From the NCBI RefSeq assembly GCF_965641715.1, contig NZ_OZ282453.1: DNA of 64,000 nt. One strand, 5' to 3'. The notes under the pieces are model-generated. The model did no database searches and was not told the origin of the DNA. It was given only the letters and a program-made list of their open reading frames with translations. The translations under genes were made by a program, and so were the position numbers. The stretch is from Escherichia coli (lineage in GTDB: Bacteria; Pseudomonadota; Gammaproteobacteria; Enterobacterales; Enterobacteriaceae). Shown in pieces: positions 20,332-22,185 of the stretch; position 1 is the first letter of the stretch; every line of letters begins with the position of its first letter.

Positions 20332-22185
20332 ATGAAAATGACTTTGCCGTTTAAACCCCATGTGCTGGCGCTAATTTGCAGTGCCGGGCTTTGTGCCGCC
20401 TCTGCCGGGCTATATATAAAAAGCCGCACAGTGGAAGCGCCTGTGGAACCGCTATCGACACAACTGGCTGTGTCTGACGCTGCCGCGGTTACGCTTCCTG
20501 CAACGGTTTCCGCGCCTCCCGTAACACCCGCCGTCGTTAAATCCGCATTCAGCACTGCACAAATCGATCAATGGGTTGCACCTGTCGCGCTATACCCCGA
20601 CTCTCTGCTTTCACAAGTGTTAATGGCATCAACCTATCCGGCAAACGTTGCTCAAGCAGTGCAATGGTCGCACGATAATCCACTTAAACAAGGCGATGCT
20701 GCTATTCAGGCGGTATCTGACCAGCCGTGGGACGCTAGCGTCAAATCACTGGTGGCCTTTCCACAATTGATGGCGTTGATGGGCGAAAACCCGCAATGGG
20801 TGCAAAACCTGGGCGATGCTTTTCTGGCGCAGCCGCAGGACGTGATGGACTCGGTACAGCGATTGCGGCAACTGGCGCAACAAACCGGCTCGCTGAAGTC
20901 ATCAACCGAACAGAAAGTTATTACCACAACGAAGAAAACTGTACCGGTAACACAGACAGTCACGGCTCCCGTCATACCATCCAATACCGTTTCAACTGCC
21001 AACCCCGTCATTACAGAGCCGGCAACAACCGTCATTTCCATTGAGCCCGCCAATCCTGATGTGGTCTATATTCCCAACTACAACCCAACCGTGGTTTACG
21101 GGAACTGGGCCAATACTGCGTATCCGCCGGTTTATCTGCCACCACCAGCCGGAGAACCGTTTGTTGACAGCTTTGTACGCGGATTCGGCTATAGCATGGG
21201 CGTTGCTACCACGTACGCACTATTCAGCAGCATCGACTGGGACGACGACGATCATGACCATCATCATCATGACGATGATGATTATCATCACCACGATGGC
21301 GGTCATCGTGACGGTAATGGCTGGCAACACAACGGCGACAACATCAATATCGACGTCAACAATTTCAACCGTATCACCGGTGAGCATCTTACTGATAAGA
21401 ATATGGCATGGCGGCACAATCCAAACTACCGTAATGGTGTGCCCTATCATGATCAGGATATGGCAAAGCGGTTTCATCAAACCGATGTCAACGGCGGAAT
21501 GAGTGCCACGCAGCTACCTGCTCCAACACGCGACAGCCAGCGTCAGGCGGCAGCAAGTCAGTTTCAGCAACGAACACACGCCGCCCCCGTCATTACACGA
21601 GATACCCAACGTCAGGCAGCGGCACAGCGGTTTAATGAAGCTGAACACTATGGGAGCTATGACGACTTCCGCGACTTCAGCCGTCGCCAACCACTGACCC
21701 AGCAACAAAAGGACGCCGCTCGTCAGCGTTATCAGTCAGCTTCTCCTGAGCAGCGCCAGGCAGTTCACGAGAAAATGCAGACTAACCCGCAGAACCAGCA
21801 GCGAAGAGAGGCAGCGCGTGAGCGCATTCGGCCCGCCTCGCCTGAGCAGCGCCAGGCAGTCCGCGAGAAAATGCAGACTAACCCACAGATCCAGCAGCGA
21901 AGAGACGCAGCGCGTGAGCGTATTCAGTCAGCCTCGCCTGAGCAGCGCCAGGTGTTTAAGGAAAAAGTACAGCAGCGCCCACTGAACCAACAGCAACGTG
22001 ATAACGCCCGCCAGCGTGTTCAATCAGCATCACCTGAACAACGTCAGGTTTTTCGGGAGAAAGTTCAGGAGAGCCGCCCACAACGTCTAAACGACAGTAA
22101 CCATACTGCCAGGCTGAATAACGAGCAACGGTCAGCAGTACGCGAACGTCTCTCTGAGCGCGGAGCAAGGCGACTGGAAAGGTAA
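20332..22185 (+). CDS. yacH: DUF3300-like repetitive protein YacH (secreted, Pro/Thr-rich, His/Asp-rich tract, C-terminal tandem repeats)
   Basis: 617 aa with signal peptide; location between acnB and lpdA; internal repeat ASPEQRQ(A/V)... present four times. Confidence 0.85.
   Translation: MKMTLPFKPHVLALICSAGLCAASAGLYIKSRTVEAPVEPLSTQLAVSDAAAVTLPATVSAPPVTPAVVKSAFSTAQIDQWVAPVALYPDSLLSQVLMASTYPANVAQAVQWSHDNPLKQGDAAIQAVSDQPWDASVKSLVAFPQLMALMGENPQWVQNLGDAFLAQPQDVMDSVQRLRQLAQQTGSLKSSTEQKVITTTKKTVPVTQTVTAPVIPSNTVSTANPVITEPATTVISIEPANPDVVYIPNYNPTVVYGNWANTAYPPVYLPPPAGEPFVDSFVRGFGYSMGVATTYALFSSIDWDDDDHDHHHHDDDDYHHHDGGHRDGNGWQHNGDNINIDVNNFNRITGEHLTDKNMAWRHNPNYRNGVPYHDQDMAKRFHQTDVNGGMSATQLPAPTRDSQRQAAASQFQQRTHAAPVITRDTQRQAAAQRFNEAEHYGSYDDFRDFSRRQPLTQQQKDAARQRYQSASPEQRQAVHEKMQTNPQNQQRREAARERIRPASPEQRQAVREKMQTNPQIQQRRDAARERIQSASPEQRQVFKEKVQQRPLNQQQRDNARQRVQSASPEQRQVFREKVQESRPQRLNDSNHTARLNNEQRSAVRERLSERGARRLER
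21721..22090 (+). repeat. Intragenic tandem repeat in yacH: four copies of a 93-96 bp unit encoding about 31 aa containing SASPEQRQ
   Basis: Repeated tc(a/g)cctga(g/a)ca(g/a)cg(c/t)cagg at about 21743, 21836, 21932 and 22028. Confidence 0.8.

Follow-up and report, generated by a model that had tools for sequence, protein, structure and literature searches.

Sequence constraint and gene context of yacH in Escherichia coli, a DUF3300 gene that has lost its DUF2950 partner

The gene yacH is carried by a stretch of 64,000 nucleotides (nt) of Escherichia coli DNA (contig NZ_OZ282453.1, assembly GCF_965641715.1), referred to here as the window. YacH is a DUF3300 protein. Sequence comparison indicates that Escherichia has lost the DUF2950 gene that elsewhere accompanies DUF3300 genes, and that yacH, intact and constrained, is the orphaned half of a conserved pair. 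The gene is already annotated and its family is known, although no function is assigned; therefore no new element is discovered here. What goes beyond the annotation is the orphan status, the pilin-like fold of the partner, and the finding that both low-complexity regions of YacH, an Asp/His tract and a C-terminal repeat array, are lineage-specific elaborations. The gene belongs to the E. coli "y-ome", and its family has neither a solved structural relative nor a characterised member. Three results, namely the orphaned pair half, the strong constraint and the low-complexity regions as elaborated family-wide features, turn this unknown into testable questions.

The yacH locus is present in 5,425 of 5,426 complete E. 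coli genomes, labelled "yacH: DUF3300 domain-containing protein". A preliminary description, made from the letters of the window alone, had called the gene conserved in K-12. The ortholog exists (b0117, 96.6% identical in nt and 96.8% in amino acids, aa), with the correction that the window allele differs from the K-12 allele. Strain A30 is the nearest complete genome over the gene (99.1%), and O157:H7 strains are 99.8% identical over the repeat region. The window strain is therefore E. coli but not K-12.

The partner gene was identified in a context scan of 80 DUF3300 loci, one genome per species, with a hidden Markov model (HMM) built from the downstream open reading frames (ORFs). A homologous gene lies directly downstream on the same strand in 72 of the 80 loci, and it encodes DUF2950 (PF11453, E = 1e-80 to 1e-108). 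Of the other eight, which lack it, five stop at the edge of a contig. DUF2950 is present in each of the 14 Enterobacterales loci from outside Escherichia. The order in Citrobacter youngae is acnB, yacH, DUF2950, lpdA, which is the same site as in E. coli. In most Proteobacteria the DUF3300 gene is adjacent to the DUF2950 gene or translationally coupled with it. DUF2950 is the only conserved neighbour in 64 non-enterobacterial loci. It was also reported that DUF3300 and DUF2950 are "universally co-localized" in rhizobia, carry signal peptides, are induced in symbiosis transcriptomes and include no characterised member (PMC4653623).

The downstream DUF2950 gene is absent from the window, from K-12 and from E. 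albertii. A tblastn search at E ≤ 10 detected no remnant of it in the yacH–lpdA spacer of E. coli, including strains AST85 and MS7163, or of E. albertii, and the Citrobacter DUF2950 gene has no blastn match in the 5,426 E. coli genomes. The best 120 DUF2950 proteins in a database of 5.8 billion proteins belong to Citrobacter, Enterobacter, Lelliottia, Leclercia and Pseudocitrobacter, and none to Escherichia. The structure model of DUF2950 combines an NTF2-like with a type IV pilin-like fold. Three of the ten longest YacH homologues are DUF3300–DUF2950 fusions, all partial and possibly fused by gene calling; no other domain fusion occurs among the ten.

YacH matches the Pfam family DUF3300 (PF11737) over residues 75–333, with 264.1 bits against a cut-off of 25 (E = 1.3e-78) and profile positions 2–227 of 227 covered. 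DUF3300 is the only Pfam match at E ≤ 1, with no ZnuA or solute-binding-protein (SBP) domain, and the NCBIfam search gave no family. The literature contains only expression data and deletion phenotypes, which agrees with the preliminary view of YacH as uncharacterised. An exhaustive HMMER search with residues 66–400 over 1.84 billion representatives found 9,598 relatives at E ≤ 0.001 and 1,561 at E ≤ 1e-30. Clustered at 50% identity, the family thus has about 9,600 representatives.

The plan of the family was read from an alignment of 124 members (A1). A signal peptide is followed by a helical lobe with LDQxLAPIALYPDxLLxQVLMASTYP, a variable linker, a Pro/Tyr-rich beta lobe with IEPAxPxVVYVPxYNPTVVYGxW, and a short loop after a near-invariant Trp. 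Then come an Asn ladder, VNINVNRYN, the motif WxHxPxHRxGVPYRD and a long low-complexity tail; the consensus after the loop reads VxINVN...WxHxPxHRxGVPYRD. YacH resembles the family in the full-length HMM match, the signal peptide, the two-lobed core, WxHNP..GVPY and the polycationic tail. It differs from the usual member in that the DUF2950 partner is missing, the Asp/His loop is expanded, and 32-aa repeats take the place of a Gly/Arg-rich tail. The features of YacH are listed in Table 1; the tract, repeats, linkers and signal are not compatible with chance.

The AlphaFold2 (AF2) model is confident in the core, with a predicted local distance difference test score (pLDDT) above 90 over residues 70–270. 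Values are about 92–95 for residues 230–270 in the C-lobe and 83–95 for residues 340–380 around the post-tract segment. The PDB holds no significant sequence or fold match to YacH, and profile searches with alignments A1 and A2 found nothing real. PDB sequence matches of the tract were FLAG and His tags of recombinant G-protein-coupled receptor constructs, those of the repeats were designed helical proteins, and both sets were rejected as artefacts.

Export of YacH through an N-terminal Sec-type signal, as the preliminary description had it, is supported by the sequence of the N-terminus and by the classical signal peptides that begin nearly all DUF3300 homologues. The signal may be either a cleavable signal peptide (A-S-A|G) or a signal anchor; the AF2 model has a helix at residues 9–30. 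By inspection, the lipobox [LVI][ASTVI][GAS]C is not matched, the Cys residues following A-L-I and A-G-L. The Pro/Thr/Val-rich region noted earlier corresponds to two Pro/Thr/Val/Ala-rich linkers, residues 31–72 and 191–235.

Escherichia yacH is judged to be still functional because its ratio of nonsynonymous to synonymous substitution rates (dN/dS) is low, especially in the lobes. The overall dN/dS is 0.10–0.17, and 0.10–0.12 between E. coli and E. albertii. By region, the latter comparison gives 0.01 for the lobes, 0.06–0.08 for the tract and post-tract segment, 0.12–0.16 for the tail and 0.2–0.25 for the linkers. The lobes reach 0.01–0.05 against a dS of 0.9–1.5 between the two species. The N-lobe, with near-invariant columns in the 124 homologues, has a dN/dS of 0.01–0.03, the C-lobe, also with conserved columns, 0.01–0.05, and the post-tract segment 0–0.08. 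Linker 1 reaches 0.4–0.7 within E. coli. At least 80% of the locus is kept in 5,371 of the 5,425 E. coli genomes. The length variants seen are all in frame, and one annotated frameshift (HNSQ2209) was found among about 100 sampled genomes.

The Asp/His tract had been recognised in the preliminary description, with coordinates (21238–21320) that were off by 3–4 nt. The tract is disordered in the AF2 model (pLDDT below 50) and has a net charge of −10. In most DUF3300 members the segment after the Trp is WG(H/R)(G/N)D, followed directly by the Asn ladder. From the alignment, the tract is an enterobacterial expansion of this short family loop between the C-lobe and the Asn-ladder/WxHNP motif. His makes up 6.7% of the loop family-wide and 1.4% of the rest of the protein; the loop holds at least three His in 42 of the 124 members and at least eight in 10. 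The Asp/His composition is kept, with varying length and order, in Escherichia, Citrobacter, Pseudescherichia, Pseudocitrobacter, Enterobacter, Kluyvera, Hafnia and Rahnella. The dN/dS of the tract between E. coli and E. albertii stands against a dS of 0.66, and the tract is, by this measure, under purifying selection. It is also the main indel hot spot within E. coli, with 25 length or sequence variants among 120 protein clusters; in M70, for instance, it carries an HD insertion.

The preliminary description had proposed divalent-metal binding, and, judged by composition, the most likely activity of the tract would be low-affinity binding of divalent cations, an idea that draws on an analogy with ZnuA and on the selection on tract composition. 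Such binding is plausible because the periplasmic loop of ZnuA (b1857) of K-12 is nearly identical in composition and has reported micromolar Zn affinity. That loop is reported to be disordered, and its length ranges over species from 12 to 50 residues (PMC4542158). It belongs to the same compartment of the same organism and shares DDDDHDH with the YacH tract; per 28 aa, ZnuA has 7 His and 10 Asp/Glu, and YacH 9 His and 11 Asp/Glu. The two are alike in composition alone and are not homologous: YacH has no ZnuA/SBP domain or known high-affinity site, and yacH is not reported to be Zur-regulated.

Upstream of its C-terminal array, YacH has two older helical half-repeats, which are kept as RDSQRQAA or RDAQRKAAS in other Enterobacteriaceae. 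A partial unit, PLTQQQKDAARQRYQS, from about 21682, precedes the tandem array. The motif ASPEQRQ is matched exactly at residues 470, 502, 534 and 566, which sets a period of 32 aa or 96 bp. The four tandem SPEQRQ units of the preliminary description are thus present, with a period of 32 rather than about 31 aa and a location at 21739–22122. Tandem Repeats Finder reported a period of 96 with 2.7 well-conserved copies at 21691–21952 (83% matches, score 370). At the DNA level, units 1 and 2 share 89% identity; unit 3 matches these two at 65–69%, and unit 4, with a degenerate second half, has 43–51% identity. Two short helices are predicted in each unit by AF2, which makes the units helix-turn-helix-like. 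The dN/dS in the repeats is 0.1–0.2.

Residues 469–617 carry a net charge of +15, and residues 399–617 have an isoelectric point of 11.5. Family tails, counted from GVPY onward, have a median of about 174 aa; 115 of 118 carry a net positive charge, and GRR or RRR is the usual ending. Only Escherichia has the 32-aa ASPEQRQ units, which occur in both E. coli and E. albertii. Pseudocitrobacter has 19-aa repeats, TPEQRQQRQEAVQQRRS, Kluyvera and RIT691 have 18-aa repeats, NPTADQQQRRENAKSH, and the tails of Citrobacter, Hafnia and Rahnella lack repeat units. The family thus conserves the charge and length of the tail rather than its sequence, and the 32-aa repeats are the form it takes in one lineage. 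These repeats recall the LTXXQ proteins CpxP, Spy and ZraP, which are likewise helical, periplasmic and linked to Cpx, and each helix is headed by a short (S/T)PEQRQ motif. They form a lineage-specific tail and not a domain. LTXXQ (PF07813) and Metal_resist (PF13801) were rejected as readings of the repeats, neither being listed at E ≤ 10 when the C-terminal 178 aa were searched alone. DUF3106 (PF11304), with its "SPEQR", stayed below threshold (15.2 bits against a cut-off of 24.3, E = 0.031).

The repeat number varies between strains, as the preliminary description had expected. Sixty genomes, evenly spaced along the ranked list of the 5,425 E. coli genomes, were sampled. The four-unit length was found in 31, a length shorter by exactly 96 bp in 27, one shorter by 108 bp in one, and one was divergent; a 40-row sample of the whole gene agrees. 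Three and four units thus each account for about half of the sample, and a five-unit allele is rare, so that repeat number across E. coli genomes is not invariant. The alleles show gain and loss of units, from three to five, by recombination or slippage between the 96-bp repeats. At least five architectures occur among the alleles inspected by eye, on which the assignments rest, since regular-expression classing of the 120 protein clusters is unreliable for substituted motifs. The window and K-12 have A-A-B-C, MY1-8, M70 and TW14425 have A-B-C, MS7163 has A-A-C, ECOD1 has A-A-A-C, and a 648-aa protein has A-A-A-B-C. Alleles of 662 aa contain a 45-aa duplication of the half-repeat region upstream of the array, and a 634-aa allele contains a 17-aa internal duplication. 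This polymorphism makes yacH a lineage marker; spurious hits in genome-wide association studies and assembly or alignment artefacts are possible.

The gene is unusually diverse within the species. Between window and K-12, yacH is 96.6% identical, whereas acnB and lpdA are 98.6–99.3% identical. Identity among E. coli alleles is 90–99% in nt, and dS is 0.11–0.25 between ordinary E. coli strains and above 1 between alleles in linker 2. Both linkers (20422–20547 and 20902–21036) occur in two sharply different E. coli haplotypes, such as STQLAVSDAAAV and STQQTAPDI(T/S)AV. The linker haplotypes and the dS of linker 2 indicate a mosaic structure of yacH. In AST85 (NZ_AP043644.1, 1627–3486 of locus L088) the core of yacH has only about 75% nt identity, against 82% for E. 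albertii, and the flanks are close to the window (lpdA 98.6%, acnB 95.5%). A divergent gene between near-identical flanks suggests recombinational import into a hypervariable locus.

Taken together, these data would fit a Sec-exported envelope protein with a conserved DUF3300 core, a cation-binding Asp/His loop and an envelope-contacting tail that serves envelope homeostasis, a reading to which we tentatively give somewhat less than an even chance. The disordered loop would bind or buffer divalent cations (Zn, Ni or Cu) at multiple low-affinity sites, like the ZnuA loop. The Arg/Gln-rich tail may contact anionic envelope components or self-associate, charge and length mattering more than exact sequence. 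A role in envelope homeostasis is suggested by the reported dependence of expression on CpxR and Rob and by the protamine phenotype described below. Several observations weigh against this reading. Most DUF3300 members have no Asp/His tract, which is therefore not essential to core function, and the tract of TW14425 tolerates a 13-aa deletion. An 8-bp deletion, GATCATCA, at nt 850–857 within the tract frameshifts yacH in most S. Typhimurium; the gene (STM0157) is a pseudogene in UK-1, 14028s, D23580, SL1344 and a human-milk isolate, and intact in LT2 (PMC3391293, PMC10048834). These pseudogenes argue for dispensability in some niches. The literature reports no link of yacH to Zur, Fur or NikR and no metal phenotype, and contains no metal-binding, localisation or biochemical study of YacH or DUF3300 proteins. 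The N-terminus fits a cleavable signal and a membrane anchor alike. Upstream of yacH, the CpxR box (GTAAA-N5-GTAAA) has one site with two mismatches, and its window-wide count is not above that in shuffled sequence.

It is unlikely, in our estimate, that the tract and repeats are near-neutral low-complexity insertions, arising by GAY/CAY slippage and unequal recombination of 96-bp units, with only the DUF3300 core acting. Both regions are disordered or of low confidence in the model and length-polymorphic within one species, most members have only WGxxD at the tract, the tails of other genera have different repeats or none, and the Salmonella frameshift arose within the tract. But the composition of the tract is kept over at least eight genera despite saturated synonymous divergence, with a dN/dS of 0.06–0.08, and His enrichment at the loop recurs in a third of the family. 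The almost uniformly positive charge of the tail (115/118), the dN/dS of the repeats and the in-frame indels also speak against neutrality. Decay is far less probable still. After the loss of DUF2950 from E. coli and E. albertii, yacH would be a relic heading to a pseudogene, as the occasional frameshifts, the Salmonella pseudogenes and an allelic diversity of 90–99% nt, against 98.6–99.3% for the flanking genes (relative to K-12), might suggest. The overall dN/dS of 0.10–0.17 and core dN/dS of 0.01–0.05 largely refute this, as do the locus retention in 5,371 of 5,425 genomes and the in-frame length changes.

The same charged regions allow other activities. The His/Asp cluster may be a pH-titratable switch, in which about 10 His, protonated near pH 6, neutralise the acidic patch and alter its intramolecular contact with the tail, tuning the protein under acid or envelope stress. 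Charge is indeed segregated between the tract (net −10 with 10 His) and the tail (+15), Cpx is reported to be acid-responsive in the study that lists yacH (PMC9600279), and one metagenomic DUF3300–DUF2950 locus is followed by the gene of the acid chaperone HdeA. The idea is nevertheless improbable: yacH is not among the acid-resistance genes of that study (PMC9600279), and the HdeA adjacency was seen once only, DUF2950 alone being conserved across the 64 loci. Equally hard to credit is that YacH, in the periplasm or at the surface, binds cationic peptides, its strongly acidic tract capturing protamine and the like and easing their access to the inner membrane. Such capture would explain why the deletion mutant outperforms the wild type on protamine plates and would accord with the fall of yacH mRNA with protamine and cecropin A (PMC9600279), but the phenotype is a single plate result from one study, the whole protein is net neutral with a polycationic tail of its own, and most family members miss the acidic tract. 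A broader and similarly doubtful proposal is that DUF3300 and DUF2950 form a widespread, uncharacterised periplasmic two-protein module of Proteobacteria, in which a protein of novel fold with a polycationic tail is joined by an NTF2/pilin-like partner. In Escherichia the module would work without the partner, the expanded His/Asp loop serving as a metal- or pH-gated switch of the way in which the Arg-rich repeat tail engages the envelope. If this is true, strain-specific repeat number would tune cationic-peptide susceptibility.

Table 1. Coordinates of yacH features in the window
Feature	Position	Strand	Residues	Description
Upstream block ATCCCAAGATTAGTCAAAA and TATACT	20226–20244 and 20263–20268	+		TATACT −10-like; candidate yacH promoter, possible activator site
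yacH coding sequence	20332–22185	+	617 plus stop	ATG start; from ORF list; annotated yacH / DUF3300 domain-containing protein
N-terminal Sec signal	20332–20406	+	1–25	MKMTLPFKPHVLALICSAGLCAASA, then GLY; basic n-region, hydrophobic core, A-S-A|G site
Linker 1	20422–20547	+	31–72	Ala/Val/Ser/Thr/Pro-rich, pLDDT about 50, hypervariable between alleles
DUF3300 N-lobe	20548–20901	+	73–190	All-helical, APVALYPDxLLxQVLMASTYP, pLDDT 95–98
Linker 2	20902–21036	+	191–235	Thr/Val/Pro-rich (T 20%, V 17%, P 13%), hypervariable
DUF3300 C-lobe	21037–21240	+	236–303	Beta-rich, Pro/Tyr-rich, VYIPNYNPTVVYGNW..YPPVY, ends at invariant-like W303
Asp/His tract DDDDHDHHHHDDDDYHHHDGGHRDGNGW	21241–21324	+	304–331	GAY/CAY codons almost throughout; candidate divalent-cation site
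Conserved post-tract segment	21337–21450	+	336–373	Asn ladder NINIDVNNFN and motif WRHNPNYRNGVPY
Older helical half-repeats	21526–21660	+	399–443	TRD(S/T)QRQAAA, two copies; predicted helices 400–414 and 423–437
Four tandem 96-bp / 32-aa units (ASPEQRQ...)	21739–22122	+		Architecture A-A-B-C
Basic C-terminus plus stop	22123–22185	+		EQRSAVRERLSERGARRLER
Intrinsic terminator	22197–22227	.		Bidirectional, common to convergent yacH and lpdA; A-run, GC stem, T-run

The expression of yacH has been described in several studies. The gene was scored as CpxR-regulated, being up in cpxA24 and with NlpE and down with protamine in a partly cpxR-dependent manner; the yacH deletion mutant survived protamine better than the wild type, and a decrease of yacH mRNA with cecropin A had been reported before (PMC9600279). 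Under butanol, a rob mutant expressed yacH at a 16-fold lower level (PMC7537768). The yacH promoter is ampicillin-responsive (PMC8865558), and in strain UTI89 a cathelicidin peptide modestly induces the gene (PMC6737244). The deletion slightly raised the yield of recombinant green fluorescent protein (PMC7376861). Weak binding of the sigma-28 holoenzyme to the yacH–acnB spacer was found by systematic evolution of ligands by exponential enrichment (PMC5493296). None of the published yacH studies addresses biochemistry, localisation or metals.

A scan for consensus sigma-70 promoters found none on the plus strand upstream of yacH. The block at 20226–20244 and the TATACT are the sole upstream blocks conserved across genera in the yacH upstream regions of 12 Enterobacteriaceae. 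A promoter at 20226–20268, possibly activator-dependent, is thus a possible reading of this conservation. The candidate has a poor −35 position, and its conserved block bears a loose resemblance to a marbox, with 11 of the 14 specified positions matching by eye. The acnB–yacH spacer also contains a perfect palindrome, GGTGAT-A-ATCACC, at 20202–20214. The core, TGATAATCA, is identical to the central part of the Fur-box consensus; compared by eye with the whole box, 12 of 19 positions match. The palindrome has one change in E. albertii and is not conserved in other genera.

The window yacH is flanked by the divergent acnB (17380–20130, minus strand) and the convergent lpdA (22256–23743, minus strand), and the gene order lpd-yacH-acnB of K-12 matches. 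The RNA fold of the terminator between yacH and lpdA has −15.9 kcal/mol (z = −3.7), with none of 200 shuffles equally stable. The yacH–lpdA spacer of 70 bp (22186–22255) is an insertion site in some strains. Genomes of the MS7163 type carry in it a repetitive extragenic palindromic (REP)-like element of about 170 bp (2191–2431 of locus L085), and ECOD1 carries an IS621 transposase (3765–4745 of L089). In E. albertii the spacer is about 750 bp long (7798–8543 of L004) and includes a small ORF on the minus strand, which is unrelated to DUF2950 and whose N-terminus resembles a signal peptide.

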